NCBI GenBank assembly: GCA_965225815.1
Contig: CBDDBP010000006.1
Location: 314,066 to 378,065 of the forward strand
Direction: 5' to 3'
Source: Dehalococcoidia bacterium
Lineage (GTDB): Bacteria > Chloroflexota > Dehalococcoidia > DSTF01 > WHTK01
Length of the DNA: 64,000 nt
The position numbers were made by a program, and so were the translations under genes. Shown in pieces: positions 34,737-59,871 of this stretch (position 1 is the first letter of the stretch; the number at the start of each line of letters is the position of its first letter). Below the pieces are notes generated by a model. The model was not told the origin of the DNA. It searched no databases and was given only the letters and a program-made list of their open reading frames with translations.

Positions 34737-34743
34737 TGGTGCT

Positions 34744-38182: not shown

Positions 38183-38183
38183 C

Positions 38184-38211
38184 CGTCACACTATCGCCCG
38201 ATCGTGTAACC
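38184..38211 (+). other. 28-bp 11-6-11 palindromic site S1
   Basis: CGTCACACTAT-CGCCCG-ATCGTGTAACC. Confidence 0.75.
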
Positions 38212-38223
38212 ATCTGGCCTTCA

Positions 38224-38301
38224 GTCGCTGACTGCAAGGACATGAAGATGCAGCCTGCGCTGGAGCGAGCGCTGGGACGTAGGGAGCTGCTGAAGGCGTA
38301 G
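38224..38301 (+). repeat. orphan gene-end repeat R8
   Basis: VADCKDMKMQPALERALGRRELLKA*. Confidence 0.9.
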
Positions 38302-38455
38302 AGAACCGCAACTCGCCGTCGATGAAGGCGTAAAACAAAGCCCGACATGCTGACATGGTTACCTACCACCGTCAGAGGAAGAGGCTGGAGCCGGTTTTCA
38401 GACGTGGCATCCCTGACACTACGGATCTCGATCCTCGCGGTGTCGCCGACGGCGA

Positions 38456-39837
38456 TCAGCCAGAGTCGTCCGCCACAGGCTGTAGACGCCGCGGCGGTCT
38501 GGCGAAGATGACCACCACCGCCGCGATGCCTGCGGTCGCGGCGAAGGCGAGGAAGGCTGAATCGTAGCTGCCAGCGGCATCATAGACACGGGCCGCGAAC
38601 TGCGGACCGATGGCCGTCGCCACCGCGATCAGCGGCAGGGCGACGCCTCGCACCTTGCCGATGTTGACCCGCCCGTAGTACGTCGCCCAGATCAGTTCCT
38701 GCAGGGGAACGCGACCGCCGAAGCCGAGACCCCAGCCCACAAGAAAAAGATAGAGCACCAGTGAGCTGTCAGTGTTGAGGGAAAGGACGATGCCAGCCGT
38801 ACAGACCGACATCAGACCGAAGCTGAAAGAGGCGCAGAAACGCGGTGCGAAGCGCTGCATCATCGCTCCCCAAATCGGGCGTGATAGCGCTGTCGCAAGC
38901 AAAGCGGTGCTGAATCTCGCAGCTCCGGCCTGAGAAGAGAAGCCGGCGTCTTGAACGTTGCGATGAAGTGGAGGAAGAAGGCGCCCGTGCTGAAGCTCGC
39001 CAGAGCAAACGAGACGATAAGCAGCCAGAACGTCTTTGTGTGAATCGCCTCTGCTCTGGTCCACTGCTCCTCAGTAGCGGCCGTAACGACGAGTCTCCTG
39101 CCCGGTGTGGCTTGGATGTCCGCTTCGTCGGTGTCGCCGTCTGGCATGAGGCCGTAGTCCTCGGGACGTCGTCGCATGACTAGCGCTGCCGGGATCGCCA
39201 GGACCAGGAGGCCCAACCCGAGAATCATCCACGAGGTCTCCCAGCCAAAGGAGTCCACAAGCGCGGCTACAATGCGCGGTGTCACAGCTCCGGAGATCGA
39301 CAGGCCGGTCGTGGAGATCGTGATAGCCCAGGCTCGTCGGCGCACGAACCACTTGGAAACCGTCGTGTTGGCGACCAGGTTGCCCAGCATCATCGCACCC
39401 AGAGCGATACCGACGCCCCGTAGCAGCAAGAACTGCCAGATGCTGTCCACCTGGCTAAGGCTGACAACGCTGGCCGACATCACGACGGCCCCAACCAGCA
39501 TGAAAGGACGAGGGCCCTTGGTGTCGAGATGGCTGCCGACCAGGAAACCGCCGCCGCTCATCACCAGCGTCCCCAGGGTCTGGGCCCATGTGAAGTCAGT
39601 TCGGGACCAGCCAAGGTCAGTCGTCATCGGCTCCAGGAAGACGGCCTGAGCGTGGCTCTGTATCGCTACGGCCGTCATCTGGGCGCAGAGAGCCGCCACG
39701 ACTATGTACCAGCCGTAGTAGACCTTACGCGGACGTGCGGCTTGGAGGCGACCAATCAGGCGATTGCGAGCGCGAGGTGGCTCCGCCACGGTCTGACGCA
39801 CGTCAGCGCTTTCCGGCCCTGAGCCAGGTAAGCTCAT
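38456..39837 (-). pseudogene. MFS transporter (OFA-like), frameshifted near 38950
   Basis: YYGWYIV, PMTTDLGWSRT, KWFVRRR; C-terminus YYGR...GKVRG in another frame. Confidence 0.8.
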
Positions 39838-39997
39838 CTTGCGGCAATACTAAAGGCTGAGCGCTTGCTCCGTTGATGGTGCCATATTGACCGAGGACCT
39901 TTTAACAGTTTGCGCCGCCATGTGTAGCGGTTTGGAACGTCAATGACACTCCAGTGGCCGTCGGGCCTGACCCAGAGCTTGCAAGCATTACGATCTG

Positions 39998-40078
39998 ACC
40001 ATCGCCGAGTTCCAGGACATGAAGATGCAGCCTGCGCTGGAGGGGGCGCTGGGACGCAGAGGGCTGCTGAAGGCGTAG
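39998..40078 (+). repeat. orphan gene-end repeat R9
   Basis: TIAEFQDMKMQPALEGALGRRGLLKA*. Confidence 0.92.
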
Positions 40079-40105
40079 GTCACACTATCGCTTGATCGTG
40101 TGACC
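40078..40105 (+). other. 28-bp palindromic site S2, abutting the R9 stop codon
   Basis: GGTCACACTAT-CGCTTG-ATCGTGTGACC. Confidence 0.8.
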
Positions 40106-40119
40106 ACCTAATCCCCGCA

Positions 40120-40193
40120 CTCGCCGAGATCCGGGGTATGAACATGCAGCCTGCGCTGGAGCGGGCACGCGGACCGGGGCGCTGAAGGCGTAG
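40120..40193 (+). repeat. orphan gene-end repeat R10 (degenerate)
   Basis: LAEIRGMNMQPALERA...GCTGAAGGCGTAG. Confidence 0.8.
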
Positions 40194-40324
40194 CTGGTTT
40201 AGCCTAGGAATCTGTCGCTGGCAAACAAGTGTATTAGCGCAAGGCTGTATCGAGAGGGATGGCTTTCAGAAGGGAAGCGGCCCCACGTACTTCCCTTCTG
40301 AGCCGCCCCAATGAGGGCTCGGTA

Positions 40325-40681
40325 TTAGGTGATTGGCTCGTAACCAGGCCCAAGCAGCGGGCACATGAACCGAATGCCACTCCCCATGTCCCAGCGCCCA
40401 CCAACATAGCCGACGTCACCGGGTCCGAACTCTGTGATCAGGCTACCTGCACCACAGTGATTGGCTGCGTCGGGGTCAGGTGCCAAATCTTGGAACGGCC
40501 CCTTATTAGGAAGGTTCTGTGCCGTGACGACGGAGTCATAGCAGAGGTCCTGGCTCTCAACGTAAACCACTACTCGTGGCAGAGGCTTCGGCGGCGTCGT
40601 GGCATTAGCCACACCCGTGAATGTAAGAATCGCCATGGCGGCAGCAGCCACCACAACACCTAGGGTCATCAGTCGTTTCAT
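40325..40681 (-). CDS. small secreted protein
   Basis: signal peptide MKRLMTLGVV..ANA; GAGGAG RBS; TEFGPGD.GYVGGRW. Confidence 0.7.
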   Translation of the reverse strand: MKRLMTLGVVVAAAAMAILTFTGVANATTPPKPLPRVVVYVESQDLCYDSVVTAQNLPNKGPFQDLAPDPDAANHCGAGSLITEFGPGDVGYVGGRWDMGSGIRFMCPLLGPGYEPIT

Positions 40682-40789
40682 AGTGCTCCTCTCCAACTGT
40701 TGTTTGGGGCAAAGCACAGCGTGACGATCTTGGCTTACAGGCCGCTTACGAAGATTACGCTTTGGAGGCATTCCCAGAATCCACGAAGT

Positions 40790-40846
40790 GCGGGCGCTAG
40801 GACGCCGGGGGGCTGGAGGTGTAGGTCACTATTTGGTCATAGTGTC
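40790..40846 (+). repeat. short repeat R11 plus site S3
   Basis: GCGGGCGCTAGGACGCCGGGGGGCTGGAGGTGTAG then GTCACTAT-TTGGTC-ATAGTGTC. Confidence 0.7.
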
Positions 40847-40979
40847 TGTGCGCCAGCAGGCGAAGAGAGCGTCATAGATGAGGACGTAGTGGCTGCGACC
40901 ACCCACCGGAGCCGGCCCAAGTTCCCGATGCTCTACCTGGCGCTCAACTTGACCATGGACCTGTCCCTATACTGAAGTC

Positions 40980-41711
40980 ATGAGACCCGTCCTCGTTCTC
41001 TCGCTCATAGCCTTGGCGGCCTTCGCTTCGGGAGTGGGTTACTTCATGCGGACTGCAATCGAGTCAGGCGACTCCATGGCGCCTGTCGCCCAACCTGCAG
41101 AAACACCAGTACCCACTATTCAACCTGCCAACTCGGCACTCCAGATCAGAATGGTGACGCTTCGCGAAAGCAGTCCGGAGTACTCGATCGACGTGGTTTA
41201 TCCTCAGCTGGGACTATCCTTCGACTCGGAGATTAGGGATCTCTTTGACGAAAGTAGCGCTCAGATCAGGAATCTGGCACGGGACTATCCGCCGGATTCC
41301 GTGAGTCCAGGGCCATACACCCTGGCCAGCACGTTGCACTCCGTCTACGTCGATCCTGATGTCGTCAGCATCCGACTATCTATTTACAGTTATACCGGTG
41401 GAGCCCACGGAGGCTCGGCCACCTTCGGATTCAATCTGAATCGTGATAGCGGTACAGAACTCACCATTGATGAGGCCCTTTCGCTGATCGGGTTGTCTAT
41501 TTCAGAAGTCGCAGACCAAGCACTAAGGCAGTTGAAAGCGGAACTCGACTTCGCAGTATTCCAGGATGGGGTGTCTGCGCACCCAGGGAACTTCCAGACA
41601 TTTGTGGTCAACGCTGACGAAGTCATCTTCATCTTCCAAGAGTATCAGGTGGCTCCCTACGCAGCTGGACCACAGGAGGTCTCGTTTCCCAGAGTGCGAA
41701 GACTGCCTTAG
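40980..41711 (+). CDS. RsiV/DUF3298-family secreted protein
   Basis: YSYTGGAHG; F..YQVAPYAAGP motifs. Confidence 0.85.
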   Translation: MRPVLVLSLIALAAFASGVGYFMRTAIESGDSMAPVAQPAETPVPTIQPANSALQIRMVTLRESSPEYSIDVVYPQLGLSFDSEIRDLFDESSAQIRNLARDYPPDSVSPGPYTLASTLHSVYVDPDVVSIRLSIYSYTGGAHGGSATFGFNLNRDSGTELTIDEALSLIGLSISEVADQALRQLKAELDFAVFQDGVSAHPGNFQTFVVNADEVIFIFQEYQVAPYAAGPQEVSFPRVRRLP

Positions 41712-41723
41712 AAGCTGGCTCCA

Positions 41724-41751
41724 CGTTGCACTATGAGGACATCGTGTCACC
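41724..41751 (+). other. 28-bp palindromic site S4
   Basis: CGTTGCACTAT-GAGGAC-ATCGTGTCACC, 13 nt after a stop codon, followed by TTGACA. Confidence 0.7.
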
Positions 41752-41804
41752 CGTTTGACAGCACTCTCTGCTTGCTGTGTCTGCATTCAGGGCGTATCGT
41801 GAGC

Positions 41805-41895
41805 TTGTCGTTCGGGGTGGTCCCGGCAATTTCGGGGCCTGAGAGCACACCCGCGGACCTGATCCGGGTAATGCCGGCGTAGGGAAGGCGATGAC
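41805..41895 (+). ncRNA. TPP riboswitch
   Basis: GGGGTG...CTGAGA...ACCC...ACCTGATCCGGGTAATGCCGGCGTAGGGA upstream of thi genes. Confidence 0.95.
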
Positions 41896-41981
41896 ATTCG
41901 CAGCCCAGCTGTTTCCAGCAACGTCACCGTCTGATTAGGTTTCCGTGACTTGGCCTACCGACCCGGCGGCGGAGGGAACTT

Positions 41982-42641
41982 CTGGTACACGCCAAACTCG
42001 GGCGGCTCCACGTAATTACCGACGAGGTCTTGCAGACCCGCTACTCCCACGCGGAGATCGCGACATTTGCCGTTCGCGGAGGCGCCGACACCGTGCAGTT
42101 CCGAGAGAAGCGAACGCGTCTGACGCGCGAGCTGATCGACGACGCCGGAGCCGTCGCACGAACGTGTCATGCGACCGGCGCCTCCTGCATCATCGATGAC
42201 CGCGTCGACGTGGCTGCGGCCGTGGGTGCCAGCGGTGTGCACTTGGGTCGGGACGATTTGCCGGTGAAGGTTGCACGCCAATTCTTGGGCGCCGGCATCC
42301 TGATCGGCGGCACGGCAAACAGTATCGAAGAGGCACGCCGCGTCTGGCAGCAGCCCATTGACTACCTGGGCGTGGGACCCGTTTACGGCACGCAGTCCAA
42401 GGCGAACCCGGCGCCCGTGCTTGGGATCGAGCAGCTTGAGGGGATAGCCAGGGAATGCCCCGTGCCCGTGATCGCGATTGGCAGCATCACGGCCGACCGT
42501 GTCGGTGAGGTGCTGGACACAGGCGCATTCGGGATGGCTGTCCTGTCCGCGATCACCTGCGCCGGCGACCCCGAGGCCGCGACCCGCGGCTTCGCCGATG
42601 TGATCAGGGGCTGGCTCGCGGCCCGAGAGGTCGGCAGATAG
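41982..42641 (+). CDS. thiE: thiamine-phosphate synthase (possible CTG start)
   Basis: GRLHVITD, QFREK, IIDDRVD, GVHLG.DD, DYLGVGPVY.T.SK. Confidence 0.9.
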   Translation: MVHAKLGRLHVITDEVLQTRYSHAEIATFAVRGGADTVQFREKRTRLTRELIDDAGAVARTCHATGASCIIDDRVDVAAAVGASGVHLGRDDLPVKVARQFLGAGILIGGTANSIEEARRVWQQPIDYLGVGPVYGTQSKANPAPVLGIEQLEGIARECPVPVIAIGSITADRVGEVLDTGAFGMAVLSAITCAGDPEAATRGFADVIRGWLAAREVGR

Positions 42642-43771
42642 TGAAGCGGAAGCTGGCAGCAGACGTCGCTGTGATCGGTGGAGGCATCATCGGGCTCGCC
42701 TGCGCCAACGAGCTCGTCACACGAGGCAAGCGTGTCGTCGTCCTGGAGCGCGACCATGCTGGCGCTGGCGCCGGTCATGTGGCTGCGGGGATGCTCGCGC
42801 CGGCGAGCGAATCGGAGGCGGAGAACGAGGCGTTCGTCGAGCTGGCGCTCGCGAGCTGCGCCATGTACGAGGAATGGGTTGCCGATGTAGAAACCGCGTC
42901 CGGCTTGAGCTGCGGCTATCGCAAAGAGGGGACTCTGCTCCTGGCGTTGCATCATGACCATGAAGAAGAGCTGCAGCGACTGATGAGCATCCAACGCAGG
43001 CTGAATCTGGCGTCAGAGACCGTGACCCGGGCAGAGGTGCTCGAAAAGGAGCCCTTCGTTTCGCCGAGGGTGGTGAGCGGCCTCTCGGTGACGAATGACA
43101 GGCAGGTCGACCCGAGGCGGCTAACGCGGGCGCTGAGCGCGGCCTTGTCTGCCAGAGGCGGAACGATGGTTCAAGGGCAGGCAGCGGAGCCGGTAATCGA
43201 CGGCGGTCACGCGGCTGGCCTCAGGACAGAAAGCCTGGAGATCAACGCCGAGGTCGTGCTGATCGCGGGTGGTGTTTGGAGCGCCGCGGCTTGGCCGGAG
43301 GCCGCAGGGCCACTGCCACTCAGGCCGGTCAAGGGACAGATCATACGCTTGCGGGGCGCTCCTCTGATCCGGCATGTCGTTCGGACACCTGACGTCTACC
43401 TGATCCCGCGCGAGGACGGCGAGCTGGTGGTCGGTGCGACAAGCGAGGAGCAAGGCTTCGACACAACCGTGACAACCTGGGCCGTCATGGACCTGCTGCG
43501 TGAAGCTTGGCGCGTCCTGCCGGGCATCGCGGAGCTGGAAGTGGCGGAGCTGTCCGCCGGCCTACGGCCTGCGCTGCGCGACCACATGCCGGCGATCGGC
43601 GCAACCTCGCTCGAAGGGCTGTTCCTTGCGACGGGCCACTACCGTCACGGCATCATGCTTGCGCCGATAACGGCGAAACTCATCGCAGATGCGATCGACG
43701 GTGTGAGCTCGGAGATGTTGCGCGCCTTCGACCCGAAGCGGCTCGCCGAAGCCAGCGTGGGCCACGGCTGA
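42641..43771 (+). CDS. thiO: glycine oxidase
   Basis: GGGIIG, AAGMLAP, PVKGQ, GHYRHGIMLAP. Confidence 0.93.
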   Translation: MKRKLAADVAVIGGGIIGLACANELVTRGKRVVVLERDHAGAGAGHVAAGMLAPASESEAENEAFVELALASCAMYEEWVADVETASGLSCGYRKEGTLLLALHHDHEEELQRLMSIQRRLNLASETVTRAEVLEKEPFVSPRVVSGLSVTNDRQVDPRRLTRALSAALSARGGTMVQGQAAEPVIDGGHAAGLRTESLEINAEVVLIAGGVWSAAAWPEAAGPLPLRPVKGQIIRLRGAPLIRHVVRTPDVYLIPREDGELVVGATSEEQGFDTTVTTWAVMDLLREAWRVLPGIAELEVAELSAGLRPALRDHMPAIGATSLEGLFLATGHYRHGIMLAPITAKLIADAIDGVSSEMLRAFDPKRLAEASVGHG

Positions 43772-43974
43772 TGCACGCGACGGTGAACGGAGAGGAAATC
43801 GTGCTGCAGGGCCCGAGGACCATCGAGGCGCTGGTCGCGGAGATTACGGGTTCCTCGGAGAAGCGCGGTGTCGCGGTGGCGCTAAACGGTGAAATCTTAC
43901 GTCGCGACGACTGGTCTCAGGTCGTGGCTGAGGGGGACGAGATCGAGATCGTGAAAGCGGTCCAGGGAGGCTGA
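43771..43974 (+). CDS. thiS: sulfur carrier protein
   Basis: VNGE...VAVALNGE...EIVKAVQGG with C-terminal GG. Confidence 0.93.
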   Translation: MHATVNGEEIVLQGPRTIEALVAEITGSSEKRGVAVALNGEILRRDDWSQVVAEGDEIEIVKAVQGG

Positions 43975-45400
<1,426 letters not shown>

Positions 45401-45401
<1 letters not shown>

Positions 45402-46222
45402 TGGCCACCTACACGCGTGCCCTGACGATCGCGGGTTCAGACTCGGGAGGCGGCGCGGGCATCCAGGCCGACCTCAAGACGTTCTCAGCACTGGGCTGCT
45501 ATGGCATGTCGGTGATCACAGCGATTACGGCACAGAACACGCGTGAGGTCACGGCGGTGCACGCGGTTCCCGTGGACGTTGTTACCGCTCAACTCGACGC
45601 TGTACTCTCTGACATCGGCGCGGACGCCATCAAGATCGGTATGCTGTACAACGCCGAGACGACGGCCGCCGTGGCGGAGGTCCTGGGTCAGCGGCGGGTC
45701 GCCCCCATCGTCCTGGACCCGGTGATGGTGGCGAAGAGTGGCGATAGTCTGCTCACCGAACCGGCGATCCAAAGCCTGCGGACGCGGATGTTCCCTCTCG
45801 CCGACCTGATTACGCCGAACCTGCCCGAAGCGGAGGCGCTGCTCGAGCGGAGGGTTAGTGACCGTGATGACATGGAGGAGGCGGCGGCTGACCTGCTGGC
45901 AATGGGGCCGACGGCCGTACTGCTGAAGGGAGGACATCTCGAGAGCGAGGTGGTCAGCGACATCCTGGTGCAACGCCGTCACGACGGCAGTGTCGAGAGC
46001 CGCTGGCTTGAGAGTCGGCGGGTTGAAACGCAGAACACCCACGGCACGGGCTGTACGCTCTCATCAGCGATCGCGGCTCACCTGGCGCGTGGCGCCTCGA
46101 TGGAGAATGCGGTAGCGGCGGCCCGACAGTACGTCCAGGACGCAATCGAAGCGGGGGCTGAATACGAACTGGGGCATGGGCACGGGCCGGTGCATCATTT
46201 CCATGCCGCCTGGCGAGAGTAG
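45401..46222 (+). CDS. thiD: HMP/HMP-P kinase
   Basis: TIAGSDSGGGAGIQADLK, DPVM, TPN..EA, HGTGCT. Confidence 0.97.
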
Positions 46223-46225
46223 ACG

Positions 46226-46900
46226 ATGAGATTCACAGACGAACTGTGGCAGAGCACCCTTCCCGTCTACGAGGAGATCTTGCGCCTGCCGTTCATCGAT
46301 GAGCTGACTGATGGCTCGTTATCGCGGGAGCGGTTCGTCTTCTATATGAAGCAGGACGCCTTGTACCTGCAGGACTTCGCGCGCTCGCTCGCCATTACCG
46401 GCTCGCGCCTGCCCGAGCCGGAAGCCGCGCAATCGTTCATGGGCTTCGCGCACGGGGTCTTTGCCGTCGAGCGCCAACTTCACGAGACCTACTTCCGTGA
46501 CTTCGGCGTAGAGCTGGACACAGATAGGGCGCCAGCCTGCTTTGCGTACACGCAGTTTCTCCTGGCGACGGCGACCACCGCGACCCACCAAGAAGCCGCT
46601 GCGGCACTGCTGCCGTGTTTCTGGGTATACCGGGAGGTGGGCAACGAGATCGTCCACCGCGCGCAGGAAAACGTAGCGTCCAACCCGTACTCGCGCTGGA
46701 TCGAGACGTACTCCGGCGAGGGGTATGACGAGAGCGTGACGCGCGCCATCGAGATCGTCGAAGCGCAGGGGCAGTCGACCTCTAAGTCGGGACGCAAAGC
46801 TATGCAGCGAGCATTCCAGAAGTCAACGCGGCTGGAGTGGATGTTCTGGGACAGCGCCTACCGCCTGGAACAGTGGCCACCCGGACCAGGTCAGAGTTAG
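46226..46900 (+). CDS. tenA: thiaminase II / aminopyrimidine aminohydrolase
   Basis: QDALYL, LLPCFWVY, Y..WI.TY, LEWMFW. Confidence 0.92.
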   Translation: MRFTDELWQSTLPVYEEILRLPFIDELTDGSLSRERFVFYMKQDALYLQDFARSLAITGSRLPEPEAAQSFMGFAHGVFAVERQLHETYFRDFGVELDTDRAPACFAYTQFLLATATTATHQEAAAALLPCFWVYREVGNEIVHRAQENVASNPYSRWIETYSGEGYDESVTRAIEIVEAQGQSTSKSGRKAMQRAFQKSTRLEWMFWDSAYRLEQWPPGPGQS

Positions 46901-46904
46901 GCCA

Positions 46905-46932
46905 GGCCCCACGATCAGGCAATAGTGCTATG
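46905..46932 (-). other. 28-bp palindromic site S5 (inverted)
   Basis: GGCCCCACGAT-CAGGCA-ATAGTGCTATG, 5 nt after the tenA stop. Confidence 0.65.
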
Positions 46933-47077
46933 GCCTGCTTTGGAGCCAAATAGATTCAGATTGCGTTGCCGCGAGCTCCAGGAAGCCCACAGCTTCGATT
47001 TCCACGAGGCAGTCGGGGCGCCCACCAACCGCATCAACTTGCACCAACGTCGAAACGGACGGCCGGGTCTACGACTT

Positions 47078-47105
47078 GATCACACTATGCCGGCATCGTG
47101 CCAGG
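47078..47105 (+). other. 28-bp palindromic site S6
   Basis: GATCACACTAT-GCCGGC-ATCGTGCCAGG. Confidence 0.7.
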
Positions 47106-47186
47106 TTGCGGACGCCCTGGGCCGTTCCCTCGAAGAACGTGAACACCTCCCTCCAGTAAGCTGAGCAGGTTACTCTCGGAGGGGAA

Positions 47187-47816
47187 ATGGCGATTACCGG
47201 ACTCGACCACATCATCTACGCGGCGCCGGACCTGCAGCGCGCGATGGAATATATCAGGGCTCTTACAGGCATCGAGCCCATACGTGGTGGAGCACATCCC
47301 GGTCGTGGCACCCAAAACGCCCTGGTGTATCTGGGTTCGGATACCTATATCGAAATTCTGGCCCCAGATCCGACTCAATCTGCGGAAGCTCTGGCGCTTG
47401 CCGCCGACCGGATTCCAGCGACAGGTCGAATCATTAACTGGGCGGCCAAGTGCGACGATCTCGAGGAGGCCTTAGATACGGCTGCCCAAAGCGATCTGGA
47501 CCTGGGACGCATCGAGCCCATGTCGAGGACGCTCCCCTCAGGAGGTCAACTTGCTTGGCGGCTGACGCGCGGAGATCCACCCGGCGACGGCCTGGTCCCG
47601 TTTCTCATCGATTGGAGCGAGTCGCCACACCCAGCACCCAGCGCTCCTTCAGGCTGCGCCCTTCATTTCTTCCGAGCTGAGCACCCCGATCCTGGCCCCA
47701 TCAGAGATTACCTGGGCCTGCTCGGCCTTCGGGATGAGCTGGAAGTTTCGCAAGGTCCGGTGCCCCGCATACTCGCAGGCCTTGTGACGCCAAACGGTCC
47801 TGTTGTACTCAGCTAG
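47187..47816 (+). CDS. VOC/glyoxalase-like (Glyoxalase_3) protein
   Basis: LDH, GG.HPG.GT.NAL, YIEI, PFLIDW. Confidence 0.88.
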   Translation: MAITGLDHIIYAAPDLQRAMEYIRALTGIEPIRGGAHPGRGTQNALVYLGSDTYIEILAPDPTQSAEALALAADRIPATGRIINWAAKCDDLEEALDTAAQSDLDLGRIEPMSRTLPSGGQLAWRLTRGDPPGDGLVPFLIDWSESPHPAPSAPSGCALHFFRAEHPDPGPIRDYLGLLGLRDELEVSQGPVPRILAGLVTPNGPVVLS

Positions 47817-48239
47817 GCAGCTGGTCGGAAAGCACCACATCGTCAGCCGAATCTACGAGCAATGGCCCGAAACCGCTCTCGCAACCAATGCCATCGTTGT
47901 CGCTGCCGTCGAAGCGTTGTAGGTCCGGCAAAACCGTAAAGCGTCGAAAAGCGATATCCCCACAGTCAATGTCGGGAGGCGGCGACTGAATGCAGACCGT
48001 CGGATAGGCCCGGTCGCAATCGCCCAGCGACGACAGCTAGCAATTTGGCCACTACTTTGCCGTCAACCCAGTTCTTTGAGCGAAGCGTCTTCAGACTGGC
48101 GTTCACGTCAGCAAGTCGCAGCGACAGCGAGCAGTTGAAGGGCTCCCTATTGGTCCGATTCCATTTGGGTACCTCTCGATAGACCCTCGACGGGCACCGG
48201 AGCTGATAGCGACTGAGGCAGAGGCGCTGCAAGAAGTCC

Positions 48240-48640
48240 GGAACTTCGCAACAGACTGAGGAAGTTGGGCGTGGCCTACGTTGAAACCGGCATGTCAGAT
48301 GCCCGGTACAGACATCGAAAGGCAGAGTTAGAAGATCAGATCAAGGCAGCCAGTGCGGTCGTGCCGCCTTCTTATGAAGAGGCAGCGGCTCTACTCTTGG
48401 ATTTGGAAGCACTCTGGAAAGAGGCTACGCCGGAAGAACGTCGAAAGCTCATCAGCCCGCTGATCGAACGCGTCTACGTGGACATGGAGCTAAAGCTTGT
48501 GGGGGCGATCACGCCAACGCCGGCATTCAGGGCTCTACTGCGGTGTGCGGTACAAAGAGCGGCTCCAACATCATCCTGGTCTCTCAAGAGGACATGCAAA
48601 GGCCGGTGGTTTCTTGGTGGAGACGGGGGAGAATCGAACT
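48240..48640 (+). pseudogene. large serine recombinase C-terminal fragment ending in att-like scar 2 (48611-48640)
   Basis: LW..ATPEERR.L...LIERVYVD; ends in WWRRGRIEL after a frameshift; tmRNA-like 3' end on the minus strand. Confidence 0.75.
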
Positions 48641-49368
48641 CGGCGGTAGAACTTCCACAGACGTCCGCAGATGACCTTCATCGAGTGCCGTAGATTCAAT
48701 ATGTTCACTCATCAGTCCGCTAACGGTTGCAGAAGGTCACCAAAATCCGCCGGTGCTGTTGTCGGAACTGTTGTCAATTCAGGGATCGATAGTCTCTGAG
48801 AAGCGAAGAACTTAGGTGCAATTGGAGCGATTCTAACCATGCCACGGAGGCAGCGTGCGGGCCGGCCCTGCATCTGGCGCTGGCAAGTGAAGTCAGAAGT
48901 GTAGGAGAAGGGTGGGAAGGAGACTGCGGTGAGACTCTTGGGCCAGCCAAGTGAGCATGACTCTCGACCTCTACAGCCATGTCACGCCGATTATGCAGAG
49001 GGCCGCGGCCGACGCGATGGAGGAAGTCCTGACCTCAGGCTGACCCGAAACTCCGAATCCTCATCTTGGGACCGACGGATTAAAAGTAGGACGGTGGTGA
49101 GAGGCCCCAGAAGGCCCCGTCTTGAATCTGAGTTACTCCCGTTTCGAGCATCTTTCTCGGCGAGTTCGTTGGTCTGCCAGCCGATTAACTCTCTGGTAAT
49201 TCCTTGGAATTCGCAAGAATTCGGATTAACTGGAATTAATTCAAAGACACGCAATTTTCTCACTGGATCCGGTGGGGCGGGTCTTCGACAGAGCCAAAGC
49301 GAGTCGAACGACAAGCGATTCAAACGGCGAGCCTTTACGGGTGATTCGTCACGACGCTGTGACAGAGA

Positions 49369-49437
49369 CACTGGAACAGAGCGCAGCCCACTGGAACAGA
49401 GCGCAGCCCCGTTGTCAGTTGCGACAACGGGGCTGCG
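49369..49437. terminator. 15-bp-stem hairpin preceded by a 20-bp tandem duplication
   Basis: CACTGGAACAGAGCGCAGCC twice; CGCAGCCCCGTTGTC-AGTTGC-GACAACGGGGCTGCG just past the amidohydrolase stop. Confidence 0.65.
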
Positions 49438-49443
49438 TCCTTC

Positions 49444-50466
49444 TCAGACCTGTGCGAGCTGAGGAATGACTTTTGCAGGGTTGTGATGGAAGATCTTGAT
49501 CTTCTCTTCTTCACTGAGCCAATCAAACGCGGCGATAACAGGAACAAGATCATCTCCTGGAACACCGTTTTCTGGGCGTGGGTGTCGACTAGATCCTGGA
49601 GCCTCGACACCAAAGCACATCTGGTCGACTCCTTTTTGTCGAATCGCTGCAGTGAGGTAGTTCACCTCAGGTGCATTGGTATCGAAGAAGAGGTTCTTCG
49701 TCGTATCCCGAGACGGTAGGTGTGGATCACCCTGGACAAAGCGGTCGAGTGCTCCACCGCAGTGACAGATGATGAACTTGATATTTGGAAAGCGATCGAA
49801 GACGTCTCCGTGACCGAGCAGCTGCGTAGCGAAAAACTGCTCGACGTAAAATGCCATCTGGTAGTTCTGAGGAATAATTCTCAGCCGACGGTCCAAGACG
49901 TTCGATGCATGGACGATGATCGGGATGTTGCGTCCTTCGCACTCTTCATAGAGCGGATACCAGTAGTCTTCGTGCATTCCTGGCGTTTCACGCTTGCCAC
50001 CTGGGTCGGGGTTGACATAGGTCGCGACGAAGCCGTACTCGTCAATGCATCGACGAAGTTCAGGCAGCACGTTTGAGGTGTCTTTGTACTCTGAGACGAA
50101 TGGTAGCTGCGATGCGCCAAGGAATCGATCAGGGTAGTAGGTGCACTGCTGGTAGATCATCTCGTTGACCTCTCGGCACCAACTCTCCAGCAGATGATCT
50201 TGCATCCAAGCCATGTGGTTAAGTGGGCGAGGGCCAATGACTTGGACATCAATGTTGCGGTCGTCGATGTACTTCACATGGTTTGCAGCGGCCCAGCGAA
50301 AGTCCTCATCAGTGATTCGGAAATTTGCGGGCAGTCCCTTCCCTGCCTTTAATACCGTGCCAGTTCTGGCAGTGTTTGATCCAAGTAATTGCACAAGCGT
50401 TGCGTTCGCCCCAGTTGGCACGCTGACGTGTGCGTGCACGTCAAGAACTTTGATCCCGTTGTACAT
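49444..50466 (-). CDS. amidohydrolase-2 family protein (LigJ/ACMSD-like)
   Basis: DVHAH; YWYPLYE...P.IVH; CHCGG. Confidence 0.88.
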   Translation of the reverse strand: MYNGIKVLDVHAHVSVPTGANATLVQLLGSNTARTGTVLKAGKGLPANFRITDEDFRWAAANHVKYIDDRNIDVQVIGPRPLNHMAWMQDHLLESWCREVNEMIYQQCTYYPDRFLGASQLPFVSEYKDTSNVLPELRRCIDEYGFVATYVNPDPGGKRETPGMHEDYWYPLYEECEGRNIPIIVHASNVLDRRLRIIPQNYQMAFYVEQFFATQLLGHGDVFDRFPNIKFIICHCGGALDRFVQGDPHLPSRDTTKNLFFDTNAPEVNYLTAAIRQKGVDQMCFGVEAPGSSRHPRPENGVPGDDLVPVIAAFDWLSEEEKIKIFHHNPAKVIPQLAQV

Positions 50467-50519
50467 ACAGCCCCCTTAGTGGTGATTCCTATCCCCGACA
50501 TTCCCCATATCAACTGGCT

Positions 50520-50688
50520 TGGCGGCATCGGGTATGCCTCCCGCCACCTGAAAAGTACGTCCTCCCTGGCAAACGGTCAAGACGCCGAAGAACTGATCGC
50601 GCTGGCGGATTCGATCTTCGACTACCTGTACGTCATCCCCGCCGAAGTTGCCCGCAGAAGGGCGCGGCAGGCCGGTAGCACCCCGTAG
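50520..50688 (+). pseudogene. DUF4145-like C-terminal fragment
   Basis: DAEELIALADSIFDYLYVIPA pattern. Confidence 0.4.
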
Positions 50689-51497: not shown

Positions 51498-51498
51498 A

Positions 51499-53753: not shown

Positions 53754-54321
53754 GCTGCAGAGACCCACTGGTCCACCCGCTGCTCCAGTTCAGCTGCCGT
53801 GCCGTGCTCGCGCAGCATGTCCTGATAATCGATAGGCCACTCATGCCCAGCCTCGGCAACCATTAGGATCTTGCGGCCCATGCCGTGCGCGAGTCCGGCG
53901 ACCAGCGAGCCGCGTGCGTTGTGGATTTGCCAGCCTGTTTTGTCTTCCGGGCAGAGTCTCGCATGGTTCGCCTATGGAGCGCGGCCTGAAAGCCAACCAC
54001 GCAAAAGGACCAAGTACCCTGGGCATACGGCGTTAGCTTCCCAGGAGGGCGATTCCACTGTCTGTCTGGCTAAGAACCCAGCCCGCGGATTCGCGCGGCA
54101 TAATGAGCTAGACACAATGCCGAGACGAAAGCGGACCAGATTTGGCAGCGGTCGAGAGCTACGCGAAGCGGCGCAGAATGACTTTGGTCGTTCGCTCAGT
54201 GCCGAGGAGTGGTCCCGGGTTGATCCCGCGAACACCTACGGGCATGACGCCGAGTACGAAGTAGCGGACTTGGATGACCTGCTGGAATTGATGCGGTCAC
54301 TTCCCGGATGCGCTTCAGCGG

Positions 54322-54639
54322 GTGTTGAGCGACCCAGAGCGGATCATCGCAGAGGCACGCCGGATCAATTCTGTGGCGCCGCATCACCAGCAGTTAGGTC
54401 ATGTCTTAGCTTCACTGAAAGAGGTTGAAGCACGGCAGCGCCGTCTCATTCGCCTTTTCACGGAGGGTGAACTTCCCACTGCAATCTTGGAGGAACAGCG
54501 AACCGAACTCAGCACAAAGCGAACGGCATTGGAAGTGGAACGGCAGCCGTTGCAGTCGCTTGGCACTCAGGAGATCGACATTCACCGCATCCAGCAGAAC
54601 TTGCCCAGGGTCATTCAAAGGAAACGTACCGGCCAATGA
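54322..54639 (+). pseudogene. serine recombinase coiled-coil fragment
   Basis: LSDPERII...E.RQRRLIRLF..GEL. Confidence 0.6.
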
Positions 54640-54929
54640 GGCCTTCATCGCTGACGATTTAGCTACCATTGAACGAACATCGGCATCTATGTTCAATGGC
54701 GGCCAAATCGCATGCGTGCCACTCGAGATACCCCTGGCCTTGAGCGCTTGACGGGCACAACGATTTCATCGGTGCCGGCGGCAAGGAAAACTGCATCCGC
54801 CACCTGCGAGCTCTGGTCAAAGATGGATACGCCAAGATTCCGCAGACGTCGAGAATATATTCTCGCCTGGGAGCTTATCAGGAGCCATGAGGGAGCGAAA
54901 CGTATACGCGCGAGTGGTATGAAGGAATC

Positions 54930-56222
54930 CTAGAGCGCCGTCGTCCTCGCCCCTTCTGGAAATGTTTGGATTGCCCTATCCCCAGGACCCTGACGCTCAT
55001 GGTATGAGAGCTTACCGGCTTCATCCATGACCGGAACAGCATGGGGCGATTTCGCGATTCCGAGTATCAAGCAGGCACGACGCTCTCCAGCCTCGTCATC
55101 AAGCAGAACCTCTTTCACCTTCATGCCGGGGGCGGCGATGTCCAAATGGGAATGGATGGAGCTGTAGATGTGCTTGATTCGATTCTCAGCATCCTCAACG
55201 CCGAAGACTTTACGAGGTGCATCGCCTACGCCGATAACAATAACCCCACCCTCCGTGTTCGCGAATGCCGCGACACGCTTACAGAAGTCCTGCTCTTTGC
55301 GGCGCTTCTCTGGTCCCTTCGTGGACCACATCCCTAAGCTTTGCTTGAGGTCCCACCAAGTCTCCTCGGTGCGATTTGTCTTCACAACCTCTCGAACAAA
55401 AGCTGGCCAGAAGTCCTCGCTATCGAACAACGCACCAAGCTCCTCGGCTTTTCCTATCTCGACCACAAGGTCTCGGCACGAGTTCCTGAGGAGCTCAAAA
55501 TAGGTCACGAGGTTGTTTGTCACCGCCACAGCGACTCTAGGACGAATATCCTCGTATGGAACTTCGATAGGGCCTGAGTAAGTTTCCGGGTCTATCGAGT
55601 TGGCCTTGTCCTCGGTTACATCCATCTTAACTTTGTTAAGCGTGTTGCTGAATCTCGTGCGAAACCCTAAGGCATATTCAGTGCAAATGCGCACTTGCTG
55701 GTCGTCGCTAAGGTCCAGGGCGTCGCCGGGGTCCCGCTCCGCGAGCCTGGTCGAACCCCAGATCTTATAGGTGAAGAGGATCGATGGGCCTCGCTCGTCG
55801 CACTCTTGGAGCCATTTCACAAAGTCTAAGAAGGTGCCAACCTGTGGAGTTCTAGAGTTGCACAGATTGGCCACGGATTCCACGAGGCCGAGATATGTCG
55901 CCGGAGCGTCCTTGGATTGAAGAGCCTTGGCATCGTTCAGGAGCTTCTGAAGGGCCTCACGAGCCTCAACCGTCCTTGCTTTCAGGACGTCGAGGCTATC
56001 GATTCTCTCCCGCACCCACCAGGCGATCTCGTCTTCGGCGACCAGTCTGCCAAAGTCAGTCCGGCGGGACGACTTGAAGCCATGCTCGTTCACTGTTTCC
56101 TCGTGAAGTGCTACGTCCATCTTCCGCGCGGATCGAATGATGCGCGCATGAGCCTCGCCGAGCTGGCGAAGGGGAGCTTGGCTTAACATTTCGTCGTAGG
56201 CTGCTTCTTCCAAGACCTTCAT
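54930..56222 (-). CDS. protein with a C-terminal AlbA_2 (Schlafen-like) domain
   Basis: WDLKQ...VAAFANTEGGVIVIGVGD; N-terminal ~280 aa not recognised. Confidence 0.75.
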   Translation of the reverse strand: MKVLEEAAYDEMLSQAPLRQLGEAHARIIRSARKMDVALHEETVNEHGFKSSRRTDFGRLVAEDEIAWWVRERIDSLDVLKARTVEAREALQKLLNDAKALQSKDAPATYLGLVESVANLCNSRTPQVGTFLDFVKWLQECDERGPSILFTYKIWGSTRLAERDPGDALDLSDDQQVRICTEYALGFRTRFSNTLNKVKMDVTEDKANSIDPETYSGPIEVPYEDIRPRVAVAVTNNLVTYFELLRNSCRDLVVEIGKAEELGALFDSEDFWPAFVREVVKTNRTEETWWDLKQSLGMWSTKGPEKRRKEQDFCKRVAAFANTEGGVIVIGVGDAPRKVFGVEDAENRIKHIYSSIHSHLDIAAPGMKVKEVLLDDEAGERRACLILGIAKSPHAVPVMDEAGKLSYHERQGPGDRAIQTFPEGARTTAL

Positions 56223-56757
56223 CCTCCAGCTCCAGCAAACCTTTTGTCTTCTTCTTCGTCTTCCTCAAGATCTTTAGCATACTGACCGGCGACCGGAACG
56301 CGGTGATCTTCGAGAATACGGAACGGTTTTGAGCCGGTGTTCGACCGAAGCCATCACATCCACTCGACCGCAAACATGCCGACGTGGTACACAGGTAAGC
56401 CATGCCACTTCACGAACCGCAGGTCGTCGATGGCCCCGGAGTTGATGTCGGTAAATCGATCGGCCCGGTGCCGCTCTAGGAACTAAGCAAAGATCGACAG
56501 TTCCAGAGGGGGCCCAGACTCCGAAGATCGACAGTCAGCCTGTGCAGGGCGGTCTGCCCGGCTTATTTGAGGACAAGTTGATGCGCCCCAAAGGCGCCGG
56601 GCGTCAGTAAAGTCATTGTCGGCCGTGGAGCCACTTGTCGCCTTCTACGACAAGCGAACCGCAACTCGGTGGACAGCACCTACTCGACAGCAGTATCGCT
56701 GGCTGCTCCGCAATATGTTGGAACCTAGCAAGCAACTTGGCAGGCCGCAGCGTGGGC

Positions 56758-57234
56758 CTACTCGAACTCCTGCAAACCGAACCGCTTCTCGGCCAAACCC
56801 TCGCAACCGCTACAACCGCTGTTGCAGTAATTCTCACTCCGTATTCCAGCCTGCAGATATACATCGAAGTCAAAGGCGTCGATTATAGAATCGGGGTTCC
56901 ACCCAACCGATACCTCGGCTCGTCCACGATCATTGTTCCAGACGTATATCCACAGCACTGCGCGTTCGACATCTGCAAGATCGACAGGGACCGGCGTTGC
57001 AGATGGTTCCGGTGTTGGCACAGGAGTGCGAGTAGGGACGGGACGCGGCGTAGAGGTTACGGACGGCCCCTGGGTAGGGGTTGGAGCCAAGGTGCCAATC
57101 ACGACCGGCGCATCTTCATCTGGCGGCTCACCCCCGCCACAAGCCGCCAGAGCGATCATCGCGGTCAGGAGTACCGCCGACCTTAGCCATGTCACGAATG
57201 ATGCCCCCTTGTAAGCTGAATCAGGCACTGACAA
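56758..57234 (-). CDS. Pro/Thr-rich lipoprotein, possibly truncated
   Basis: LAAC lipobox; PT linker. Confidence 0.5.
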   Translation of the reverse strand: MSVPDSAYKGASFVTWLRSAVLLTAMIALAACGGGEPPDEDAPVVIGTLAPTPTQGPSVTSTPRPVPTRTPVPTPEPSATPVPVDLADVERAVLWIYVWNNDRGRAEVSVGWNPDSIIDAFDFDVYLQAGIRSENYCNSGCSGCEGLAEKRFGLQEFE

Positions 57235-57472
57235 GTTGGAACACCAGTCCGTTACCTAGGGCGCAAACAAGGGGGCACGCGTGCCGTGCCCTTTGGCTTC
57301 TAAACGCCCTAGAGTTAACGGTAGATTGGTGTTCCGCGGAGACTATGGACGACGTGAAGGTTTGAAGTCAACCAAACCTCGGGGGGCCTTCCGTGATTAT
57401 GGGGCGGTTAAGGAATGCTAGAAGCGCGGCGGCTGACGGGCTTTCGTTCGCTTTGCTATATCGCTGTCCTTC

Positions 57473-57702
57473 TACATCGAGAGCTTCAACGGGCGGCTGC
57501 GCGACGAATGCCTCAACGAGCATTGGTTCATGAGCCTTCCCTTGGCCCGAACCATCGTGGAGAGCTGGCGGGACGACTACAATGCCCTTCGGCCCCACAG
57601 TGCTCTGGGCAACCAAACGCCCCAGGAGTTTGCACAACAGATGGCTAGGAAATCCCCAGTCGGATTCTAGGAATCCTTGGACCTAATCCGGGGAGCAGGT
57701 CA
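57473..57702 (+). mobile_element. IS3-family transposase 3' remnant with right end
   Basis: YIESFNGRLRDECLN.HWF...W..DYN..RPHSALG..TP; ends ...GGGGAGCAGGTCA. Confidence 0.85.
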
Positions 57703-57731
57703 ATACCCTTGTCAGGGGTTACACCGGGGTT

Positions 57732-57917
57732 TCAGCAGAATGGCAGACCGCCCAAGTCGGTATAGGCCCTTTCCAACTGGCCTTGCAGGCTGCTTGGCAC
57801 ACACCCGCTCAACTGGTTATCGCTTAGGTCCAGCACTGTCAGGCTGGCGAGGTAGTCCAGTTCCGGGGGTATCTCCCCGCTCAACAGGTTCACGCGGAGG
57901 TCCAGTGATTCCAAGTC
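57732..57917 (-). pseudogene. plant-type leucine-rich repeat protein, C-terminal fragment
   Basis: LDL..N.LSGEIPPEL..L..L..LDLS.NQLSGCVP. Confidence 0.8.
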
Positions 57918-59818
57918 GGCCAGGTGCCGAAAGCTCCGGCCACCTTGGCACCCTGCTCCAGGCAGGCAAGCGGATCGTCATCACCACCGTCCAGAAGTTC
58001 CCGTTCATCCTCGACGCCATCGGCAACGAGCACCGCGGGCACAAGTTCGCCATCATCATCGACGAGGCCCACTCGAGCCAGGGCGGACGTACTTCGGCGT
58101 CTGTGTCTATGGCGCTGGGAGAAGCCGGTGCGGAAGATGAAGAAGACACCACAGAGGACAAGATCAACCGGCTGATGGAGTCAAAGAAGCTTTTGGCCAA
58201 CGCCAGCTACTTCGCCTTCACGGCCACCCCCAAGAGCAAGACCCTGGAGATCTTCGGCGACCCGTCGCCCGAGGCCGGCAACACCAGGCATCTCCCCTTC
58301 CACTCCTACACGATGAAACAGGCGATCCAGGAAGGGTTCATCATCGACGTGCTGGAGAACTACACGCCGGTGGACAGCTACTACCGGCTGGTCAAGACGG
58401 TGGAAGCAGACCCAGAGTTCGACACCAAGCGGGCCGGGAAGAAGCTGCGGCGCTACGTGGAGGACCATGACCAGGCCATCCGCCTCAAGGCCGAGATCAT
58501 GGTCGACCACTTCCACGAGCAGGTGGCCGGGCTCCAGAAGATCGGCGGGCAGGCGCGGGCCATGGTGGTGACGAGCAGCGTCCAGCGGGCCGTCAGCTAC
58601 TTCTACGCCATCCGGGGCTACTTGGCGGAGCGCAAGAGTCCCTACCGGGCGATCGTCGCCTTCTCCGGCGAGCACGACTACGACGGTGAGAAGGTCACCG
58701 AGGCGTCCCTCAACGGCTTCTCGTCGAACCTCATAGCAGACAGGATTCAGGAAGACCCCTATCGCTTCCTGGTCTGCGCCGACAAGTTCCAGACCGGCTA
58801 CGACGAGCCGCTGCTGCACACAATGTACGTGGATAAGATTTTGTCCGGCGTCAAGGCGGTTCAGACGCTATCGCGCCTCAACCGGGCCCACCCCAAGAAG
58901 CACGACGCCTTCGTGCTAGGACTTCAACAACGATGCCGACACGATCCAGGACGCCTTCGCCGACTACTACCGGACCACGGTCCTGGCGGAGGAGACCGAC
59001 CCCGATAGGCTCCACGACCTCAAGGCGGCGCTCGACGGCCATCAGATTTACAGCCCGGCGCAGGTGGACGAGCTGGTGGAGCGCTATCTCTTAGGAGCCG
59101 ACCGCGACCGGCTCGACCCGATCCCTAGACGCCTGCGTCTCGCTCTACCGGGAACAGTTGGACGAGGACGGCCAGGTGAACTTCAAGGGCAAGGCAAAAG
59201 GCGTTCCTCCGAACCTACGGGTTTTTGGCAGCCATTCTGCCCTATGGCAACGCCGAGTGGGAGAAGCTCTCCATCTTCCTGACCTTCCTCGTTCCCAAGC
59301 TGCCCGCTCCCATCGAGGACGACCTGTCGAAGGGAATTCTTGAGGCCATCGACATGGACAGCTATCGGGTGGAGAAGCAGGCAGCGCGCGACATCCAACT
59401 TCCCGACGAGGACGCCGAGATCGAGCCGGCCTCCCCAAGCGGCGGCGGGCAGAAGCCGGAAGCGGAGATGGAGCGGCTCTCCAGCATCATCAGGGAGTTC
59501 AACGACCGATTCGGCAACATCGAGTGGAAGGATCAGGACAAGATCGAGAGGGTGATTGCCGAGGAGCTGCCCGCGAAGGTTGCCGCCGACAGGGCGTACC
59601 AGAACGCGATGGCCAACTCTGATAAAGAGAACGCCCGAATCGAGCACGACAAAGCCCTGGAGCGCGCCATGACCGAGCTTTTGGCAGACCACACAGAGCT
59701 ATTCAAGCAGTTCAGCGACAACGAGTCGTTCAGCCGGTGGCTGCGCGAGATGACGTTCGCCGCGACCTACCTCGGGGCTGCCGGTTCTGCCACTGGGCCT
59801 GGAAGCAAAGTGGGCTGA
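57918..59818 (+). pseudogene. hsdR: type I restriction subunit R, N-terminally truncated, frameshifts near 58920, 59130 and 59200
   Basis: TTVQKF, IIDEAHSSQ, AFTATPK, KFQTGYDEP, QTLSRLNR. Confidence 0.88.
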
Positions 59819-59843
59819 CGGCTGAAAGCCGCGTTGACTCTGA

Positions 59844-59871
59844 CCTAACACGATGGCTGTATAGCGTGACC
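59844..59871 (-). other. 28-bp palindromic site S7 (inverted)
   Basis: reverse complement GGTCACGCTAT-ACAGCC-ATCGTGTTAGG, 26 nt after the hsdR stop. Confidence 0.65.

Follow-up and report, generated by a model that had tools for sequence, protein, structure and literature searches.

Palindromic sites with a 6-bp centre at gene boundaries in islands of a Dehalococcoidia genome: candidate core sites of a Xer-like tyrosine recombinase

The genome of an uncultured Dehalococcoidia bacterium (GenBank assembly GCA_965225815.1) carries in its variable islands a short palindromic site with the pattern aCACKAT-N6-ATMGTGt, here called P. We describe P from a stretch of 64,000 nucleotides of contig CBDDBP010000006.1 (positions 314,066 to 378,065, or C7:314066-378065 of the source genome; below, the window), together with its other copies in the source genome and in relatives. 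With a probability of roughly 0.55, P serves a simple tyrosine recombinase of the Xer-like kind as its core site and bounds exchangeable modules. The motif has a strict geometry, clusters in islands and marks gene boundaries irrespective of orientation; copies cease to be homologous at the core edges, spacer classes are common to genomes, and P lies in the promoter of an integrase family. We favor recombination because the position of P ignores gene orientation, because homology breaks at the core, because identical 18-mers occur with unrelated flanks, because a thiamine (thi) operon is flanked by P in two species in different contexts, and because P stands in a Xer-like integrase promoter.

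The source genome comprises 3.26 Mb (3,262,622 bp) in eight contigs (C1 to C8) with a G+C content of 61%. Exact matches to CACKAT-N6-ATMGTG start at seven positions of the window (31297, 38189, 40083, 40827, 41729, 46910, and 47083), against a mean of 0.01 in shuffled versions of it, and none of 100 shuffles reached seven. When one mismatch is allowed, 59849 joins them, giving 8 matches where shuffles predict 0.24. An earlier sequence-only reading of the window had listed seven 28-bp sites (core = start + 5), and all seven are real, six as exact copies and 59849 with its mismatch; the site at 31297 was absent from that list. Genome-wide, 31 exact copies were counted (7 on C1, 7 on C6, 13 on C7, 4 on C8, and none on C2 to C5). 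They form eight clusters that together take up 104,636 of 3,262,622 bp (3.2%), in keeping with the clustering in islands that was proposed as a check, and the clusters share these islands with integrase genes and with arrays of a second repeat, A, described below. The pattern was found in 26 of the 31 genomes searched, including 15 of the 17 other genomes of the genus, and a reversed control pattern gave 0 to 1 matches. In viral contigs the extended pattern had no matches; a 14-base variant had 112 single matches, a number that by our own estimate such a large collection would yield by chance.

Half-site spacing is narrowly fixed. In the source genome N6 accounts for 31 sites and each of N2 to N5 and N7 to N10 for 0 to 2 (two N2-spaced sites fall in a duplicated region), while direct and everted half-site arrangements number 0 each. 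The two-armed geometry around a 6-bp centre seen in the window is thereby confirmed, with arms shorter than the 11 bp first proposed: by information content, the informative arm covers only about 7 to 9 bp (G-T-n-A-CAC-K-AT). The K/M position reads T..C in 15 of the 31 sites, G..A in 6, T..A in 6, and G..C in 4, and would be unpaired in a hairpin in 21 of the 31; the other arm letters are invariant. The T/G asymmetry of the arms is weak, with 21 of 31 sites asymmetric and about 15.5 expected. This combination of a frequent mismatch with invariant arms points to recognition of duplex DNA by a protein rather than of a hairpin, with no selection for pairing. One-mismatch copies in the source genome number about 19, against about 12 by chance (scaled from the window shuffle mean of 0.24 per 64 kb), so there are few decayed copies. 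The half-site resembles half of an NrdR box; this line was dropped, as no nrd association was seen, the listed neighbor translations being unannotated.

Gene calls from our own rough caller place 30 of the 31 copies in intergenic DNA, though 84% of the genome is genic, and the statement that all sites are intergenic thus holds genome-wide with one exception. By the same calls, the gaps that hold these 30 are co-directional in 14 cases, convergent in 8, and divergent in 8, although just 17% of intergenic bases belong to convergent gaps.

Spacers were compared over 47 exact copies, comprising the 31 of the source genome and 16 of the closed genome of a relative, G015 (G numbers denote relatives and L numbers their loci). 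They fall into 17 classes, of which four hold 29 of the 47 sites (GACCAA, 10; CAAGCG, 7; GACGGC, 7; CGCCCG, 5). The spacer varies, as was noted from the window, but not freely, with few recurrent classes. Pairs with the same spacer (n = 104) have no flank in common in 85 cases, one in 16, and both in 3. Site pairs with one common flank (at least 22 of 30 letters identical) and the other unshared (at most 14 of 30) number 92, versus 3 with both in common. On the unshared side of the 92, the exact match past the core measures 0, 1, 2, 3, and 5 nt in 28, 50, 10, 3, and 1 pairs, respectively. Homology therefore ends 0 to 3 nt from the core in 91 of 92 pairs. At C7:605060 and locus L100 of G015, for instance, identity is about 90% up to and through P, with nothing in common beyond it.

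Metagenome contigs give a similar view of the junction between A and P. Five of eight contigs with such a junction carry a known spacer class (GACGGC twice, GACCGA, CGCCCG, and TTGGTC), the right flanks of all eight look unrelated by eye, and a further 18-mer, new to this set, is found in either orientation with respect to A. The exact left flank of site 41729 has 0 matches in metagenome contigs. Neither a thiamine pyrophosphate (TPP) riboswitch nor flank similarity to the window accompanies the GAGGAC-spacer sites of G017 and G020 or the GGACG[AC]-spacer sites of G023 and G024. A same-spacer match at L003 looks coding, with an H-Y-A-G-I-V stretch that is DnaB-like by eye.

The thi operon of the window (about 41800-46880) is 71% identical between species and behaves as a mobile module. 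In the source genome, P precedes the homologous block by 78 nt and follows it by 29 nt; in G013 these distances are 160 nt and 55 nt, the genomic context is different, and further copies of P bound the neighboring modules. Four more relatives (G015, G002, G003, and G012) hold the operon in at least two further contexts. Counted separately, the TPP-riboswitch-controlled operon is seen in at least four genomic contexts among six species of the genus.

An integrase gene at C7:607534-608469 encodes 312 amino acids (aa) with Phage_integrase and SAM-like domains. Its best matches are XerD and XerC models, at scores below their cut-offs, which marks it as a simple recombinase. P lies 71 nt before its start and directly abuts a TTGACT box. 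Of 30 Xer-like integrase loci examined, 8 have P, with at most one mismatch, 42 to 72 nt upstream of the integrase start, and among the 8 genus loci with upstream sequence the number is 7, in line with the proposal to look for xer-like genes near the sites; in the promoters of genus relatives, P either immediately precedes the -35 box or overlaps the -10 box. The integrase family, which is multi-copy, occurs in 39 of 93 genomes, with 65 to 82% identity across the order (G051 contributes only to this tally, to its multi-copy row, and, through L065, which has no P, to the 30 loci). Two Xer-like genes of the source genome are located at C1:692293-693294 and C8:143266-144261. In the window, the 18-mer at 59849 is identical to the one over the -10 region of the promoters of intact integrase genes in G009, G007, and G004 and is an integrase promoter remnant. 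The idea that the recombinase is encoded elsewhere was therefore partly wrong, since a truncated integrase gene lies behind this promoter inside the window.

As an observation apart, ORF (open reading frame) translations place the integrase of three relatives (L056, L057, and L061) beside genes that resemble those of type I restriction-modification (R-M) systems (hsdR- and hsdM-like). A window ORF at 57677-59008 has SWI2/SNF2 ATPase and type I restriction R-subunit domains and is followed by the integrase remnant. The Xer-like integrase could be part of an element that travels with R-M loci or uses them as targets.

If P is a recombination site, a recombinase dimer would bind its two inverted arms of 7 to 9 bp, two copies of P would be brought together in a synapse, and strand exchange would take place where the 6-bp spacer meets the arms, with circular intermediates presumably arising from such exchange. 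Matching spacers would normally be needed, so that spacer classes would act as compatibility groups, and the genes or operons between copies of P would be exchangeable modules, giving rise to the mosaic islands that hold all 31 sites. Candidates for the enzyme are the 312-aa integrase, another island integrase, and a host XerC/D-like pair. A role as recombination sites of a cassette system, as the sequence-only reading had it, stays the best-supported account of P, without the dif/pdif and attC labels that came with it.

Two further repeats, A and B, dominate the islands in which P occurs. The first, about 100 bp long, has 100 nhmmer matches in the source genome, of which 10 fall in the window. 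Repeat A represents the 3' end of a coding sequence (the last ~30-50 codons, with the peptide end ...LLDHYPDEHDAAIEHLDFAIAEFQDMKMQPALERALGRRGLLKA before the stop), and its left boundary varies from copy to copy. Across 42 full copies, variation is 0.221 at third, 0.153 at first, and 0.120 at second codon positions (permutation p 0.0008), and this third-position excess indicates that the copies diverged under coding constraint; the Arg-Arg pair is encoded by at least 10 synonymous codon pairs. A conserved fold of A was not found (consensus energy, -0.91 kcal/mol; covariation term, 0.01), nor was an attC-like one; an apparent Pro/Arg-codon covariation seen by eye is not retained in other genera. 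The parent gene encodes a 1281-aa Ser/Thr-kinase protein with Pkinase, AAA_16, and TPR domains (C7:82915-86760, minus strand). It occurs in the source genome only as this full copy and as a 922-aa partial copy (C7:150742-153510), which lies directly upstream of an A array at C7:153-177 kb. Repeat B, with 19 matches at E<1e-3 in the source genome, is the promoter-like element of the parent gene (TTGACA, about 17 nt, CAGAAT) with its start codon and first codons (VTSER...). Between B and A lie unrelated genes in co-oriented arrays with a spacing of 0.4-3 kb, among them a RidA-like gene, membrane proteins, a DinB-like gene, and Rieske oxygenases.

Similar insertions were noticed in two other Chloroflexota metagenome-assembled genomes, at L013 (6196-7105) and L051 (6025-7071), where the end of a full-length kinase/TPR gene is followed by one small gene and then by a second, diverged copy of that end. 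Judged from the printed sequence, the inserted genes look SnoaL/NTF2-like and alpha/beta-hydrolase-like, and no P occurs in either interval. Gene insertion with duplication of the kinase 3' end appears to be widespread in the phylum.

Several observations weigh against P as a recombination site. Many or most of the common flanks in the 92 one-flank pairs are copies of A, so the pairs are not independent events. The spacers that bound the thi operon differ (GAGGAC and CAGGCA in the source genome, GACCAA and GAGGAC in G013), and a homology-dependent enzyme could not simply excise a module whose two ends carry unlike spacers; moreover, P flanks the operon in none of G015, G002, G003, and G012, four of the five relatives examined. 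The co-occurrence of integrase and P lends no support, with both in 9 genus genomes, integrase only in 2, P only (at least 3 sites) in 5, and neither in 2. G001, G002, and G017 lack an integrase match and have 8 to 9 sites, G015 combines 16 sites with integrase fragments only, and G018 has an integrase and 0 sites. Repeat A bounds modules more regularly than P does, in that the module of a major facilitator superfamily (MFS) gene has A on both sides in three loci and P in only some of them, and A and P may represent two separate mechanisms. The genome set holds one genome per species, and the intergenic and gap-type counts depend on the rough gene calls.

Recombination products were not seen in Logan contigs of the four runs compared (X1, X5, X7, and X9). 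Over window positions 30600-50500 these contigs gave no clean case of a P-to-P deletion or circle junction; since rare variants do not show up in contigs, this absence speaks neither for nor against recombination. In X5, X7, and X9, contigs bridge P sites in the arrangement of the window (e.g., 40013-41875, 41865-46864, and 45451-47584). A joint of 40101 to 40827, present in 3 runs with only 20 letters on one side, would put two P cores side by side and probably stems from another repeat copy.

The alternative raised from the start is that P is the operator of a dimeric transcription factor serving island promoters, namely, those of the kinase gene (repeat B), the integrase, and thi, with copies away from promoters as leftovers of an ancestral A-P-B intergenic region. 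We regard this alternative as weakened and unlikely. A palindrome with strict spacing and invariant arms would suit such a factor, and a TTGAC[AT] box does start 0 to 8 nt beyond the edge of P at 6 of 31 sites, compared with 217 of 20,000 control positions (1.1%), an enrichment that counts against a recombination site in that an operator accounts for it as well as a promoter placed first in a cassette would; the other 25 sites have no such box in that range. Five of 31 sites abut repeat B, and in integrase promoters P stands, as an operator could, directly ahead of the -35 box or on the -10 box, but the eight sites between convergent genes exceed the share of such gaps, and others lie behind genes without a promoter-like box. 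That P is perfect in G015, where only integrase fragments remain, is what a binder encoded by the host would lead one to expect. Identical 6-bp spacers with unrelated flanks, seen in two species and in metagenome contigs, are not predicted by an operator, and the breaks of homology at the core edges also tell against one. Every site lies in variable islands, none at a conserved core promoter, and no candidate regulator was identified.

P could also be inactive today, a conserved piece of the A-P-B intergenic region, such as a former terminator or insulator, that was copied along with A and B by homologous recombination or gene conversion among the roughly 100 copies of A. P touches A at 12 of its 31 sites and B at 5, complete A(stop)-P-B units occur in the source genome (C7:594030) and at locus L046 of G015, and A-bounded modules without P exist in the source genome and in other Chloroflexota, all of which would suit passive copying. 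Against it, 14 or more of the 31 sites touch neither repeat, including those around the thi operon, and P is intact beside badly decayed copies of A (38103-38183 and about 40780-40826). The scarcity of one-mismatch copies likewise argues against a relic, and P shows neither the T-run nor the selection for pairing that a terminator would need. We consider this account improbable.

Just as improbable, in our estimate, is a miniature mobile palindrome of the repetitive extragenic palindrome (REP) kind, or a preferred insertion target, which would spread as subfamilies with fixed loop sequences by way of a single-strand hairpin recognized in trans by an HUH transposase (RAYT or IS200 type). P is extragenic, often just past stop codons, and forms discrete subfamilies with identical "loops" and unrelated flanks; its stem is mismatched at a fixed position in 21 of 31 sites, which recalls the irregular hairpins of IS200/IS605 ends, and the source genome has three Y1_Tnp genes. 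None of these three has P (at most two mismatches) within 1.5 kb, however, and the nearest exact copies are 39-187 kb away. The letters at the mismatched position vary (T.C, G.A, or paired), so there is no fixed hairpin irregularity, and whole flanks are exchanged at P, where simple insertion would leave continuous homologous flanks. The 31 copies are confined to 3.2% of the genome rather than dispersed. For want of Y1_Tnp linkage in the source genome, and less clearly of dispersion, membership in the REP/RAYT class was rejected. Abutted transposon ends were rejected as well, since GT[CG]ACAC[TG]AT falls inside full copies of P in 17 of 26 cases and the 9 lone copies are at chance level.

More tentatively than for P as a core site, and with the odds against it, we suggest that P and the A/B repeats are two layers of an integron-independent chromosomal cassette system in Dehalococcoidia. 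In the first layer, a simple Xer-like recombinase would swap modules as large as a riboswitch-controlled vitamin operon at copies of P with few spacer classes common across species. In the second, single genes would be packaged between B and A of a Ser/Thr-kinase/STAND gene, which would serve as a docking platform and be rebuilt at each insertion. The A/B layer is also seen, without P, in other Chloroflexota.

If P works in this way, an abundant and uncultured lineage of Chloroflexota would shuffle accessory genes, including a thiamine operon with its riboswitch, by means of neither an integron nor a classical transposon, and the system would have been missed by tools that look for attC, IntI, or inverted-repeat transposons. 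The spacer classes predict that only sites with like spacers recombine. Repeats A and B suggest a capture of single genes that keeps a large kinase/STAND gene intact, which would bear on the evolution of defense and signaling islands. Were P an operator, it would define a regulon restricted to mobile islands.

The leftmost site of the window (31297..31314, CACGAT GGACGC ATAGTG) lies ~170 nt from the 3'-end fragment of a tRNA gene (31483..31528, minus strand; T-arm, acceptor stem, and CCA). This fragment is a candidate island boundary and probably an att-type scar; ARAGORN found no whole tRNA in the window. The site at 38184..38211 (spacer CGCCCG) is set between two plus-strand copies of A (38103..38306), of which the first is decayed (38103-38183) and the second follows at 38211-38306, in the order A-P-A'. 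The best copy, GGTCACACTATCGCTTGATCGTGTGACC (40078..40105; spacer CGCTTG), begins 4 nt past the TAG of a repeat-A pseudo-ORF and is again flanked by two plus-strand copies (39983..40200; A at 39983-40084 and A' at 40103-40200). A site with symmetric arms (40824..40851; spacer TTGGTC, class GACCAA) comes after a decayed A in the divergent gap between 40325-40771 (minus strand) and 40980-41711 (plus strand).

The thi module is edged on the left by the site at 41724..41751 (spacer GAGGAC), whose core is 18 nt past the stop of the DUF3298/PdaC gene (40980-41711), 8 nt ahead of a TTGACA box, and 57 nt ahead of the TPP riboswitch. The module itself (41803..46900, plus strand) consists of the riboswitch (41803-41903), the only Rfam family found in the window, and of genes for a ThiE-like protein, a ThiO-like protein, a ThiS-size ORF, ThiG, a second ThiE-like protein, ThiD, and TenA. 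Its right edge is the site at 46905..46932 (spacer CAGGCA), 10 nt past the stop of TenA (46226-46900). The next site (47078..47105; spacer GCCGGC) is 87 nt upstream of a glyoxalase-like gene (47187-47816). In window order, the modules separated by P are thus a decayed A; A' with the MFS gene (minus strand) and A; A' with a small ORF (minus strand) and a decayed A; the DUF3298/PdaC gene; the TPP riboswitch with the thi operon (bounded by 41729 and 46910); a 155-bp gap; and the glyoxalase-like gene. The one-mismatch copy, CACGATGGCTGTATAGCG (59844..59871), covers the -10 region of the truncated integrase promoter, 31 nt past the stop of 59225-59818, and is followed by the Xer-like remnant (59893..60030, plus strand; 45 aa), whose first ~18 residues match the N terminus of the family before unrelated sequence sets in. 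Distances of 0-26 nt after stop codons, as reported for several sites, hold for 40083, 46910, and 41729, and 59849 lies beyond that range.

Upstream of these modules, six co-oriented copies of A form an array (33307..35936, plus strand; 33307-33407, 33937-34039, 34677-34734, 35025-35121, 35715-35769, and 35856-35936) with small unrelated genes between them, each behind a B-like promoter, and with no P inside it. Repeat B itself occurs at 31742..31791 (plus strand), where the TTGACA ... CAGAAT element and start codon are fused to an unrelated 104-aa ORF (31779-32093), and at 35785..35840 (plus strand), after a decayed A. The left edge of the RidA-like cassette is marked by a second palindrome, GGATACACAGACTGTGTCC (34060-34078), and homology with the copy of this cassette in G015 starts at 34079.

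Three further observations concern the window at large. A 2.3-kb segment (48239-50580) is 98.8% identical to G015, and its part at 48993-50580 is 98.2% identical to G004; core operons common to these species are only about 71% identical, and the segment therefore looks like a recent horizontal transfer. In both relatives, a tRNA-fragment-like repeat lies 250-330 bp beyond the right end of the segment. A frameshift splits the MFS transporter gene (38456-39837, minus strand) in the window, but contigs of all four runs compared have one extra A behind 38958, so the source assembly probably contains an error or a variant here. Genes for a DUF6174 protein and an nSTAND3 NTPase (60014-61574) adjoin the integrase remnant and the R-M fragment, in what looks like a defense-gene neighborhood.

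Among known systems, P was compared with the dif modules of Acinetobacter plasmids and their pdif sites for XerC/XerD (PMC6449649, PMC7399989, PMC12907356, and PMC13141974). Both consist of two inverted arms around a 6-bp centre, are present in many copies in accessory DNA, and bound discrete modules in different contexts with no dedicated transposase inside. Unlike the dif modules, P is chromosomal, confined to islands, and unrelated to dif in sequence, with no regular alternation of site orientation and with few recurrent spacer classes. Scans with ATAA-N6-TTATG, CATAA-N6-TTAT, and TTATGTnAAnT as the dif or Xer-binding consensus found no dif-like palindrome, and P has no such arms. Taking the point opposite dnaA as a proxy for the replication terminus, the distance to the nearest exact P exceeds 1.4 Mb in G013 and is about 0.37 and 0.45 Mb in G023 and G030, respectively, whereas G015 has a copy within 23 kb. 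Because P is far from this point in three of the four closed genomes, an association with the terminus is not supported, and the dif/pdif label was rejected on this ground and for lack of a dif-like sequence.

The attC sites of integrons are imperfect inverted repeats of 57-141 bp with R''/R' cores (GTTRRRY), recognized as a folded single strand. P, in contrast, is an 18-28-bp palindrome of duplex type with no GTTRRRY core and no selection for hairpin pairing, and repeat A is the 3' end of a gene without a conserved fold. Integron cassette arrays (PMC4889954) resemble the present islands in their co-oriented small unrelated genes with a repeated element between them, at 0.4-3 kb spacing, and in a tyrosine recombinase gene with a site beside its promoter. 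They differ in that integron cassettes are promoterless and co-oriented, whereas the cassettes described here carry a TTGACA...CAGAAT element and genes bounded by P lie on both strands. The source genome has no integron integrase (TIGR02249, best score 81 bits against a cut-off of 265, with 0 of 21 matches above it), and with neither that enzyme nor an attC-type structure, the attC label fails.

Sites of the loxP, FRT, and dif class have two inverted binding arms around an overlap region of 6-8 bp that sets site compatibility. P shares the two inverted arms around a 6-bp spacer and differs in its many sites per genome, its several spacer classes, and an enzyme that is so far a candidate. For repeat A, the parallels are the ssrA-targeted islands of Dehalococcoides, which lie in tandem at a gene 3' end, and the arrays of orphan C termini of Rhs/CdiA; there as here, direct copies of a 3' end separate inserts downstream of a full-length or truncated parent. 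Unlike either, the inserts between copies of A are single small genes equipped with the promoter and first codons of the parent (repeat B), and the left boundary of A varies. Literature searches, which most subscription journals lie outside, brought up nothing on sites of the P kind in Dehalococcoidia. By analogy, P would be functionally closest to the Acinetobacter dif modules and to core sites of the lox/FRT/dif type, while being a member of neither the dif nor the integron class.

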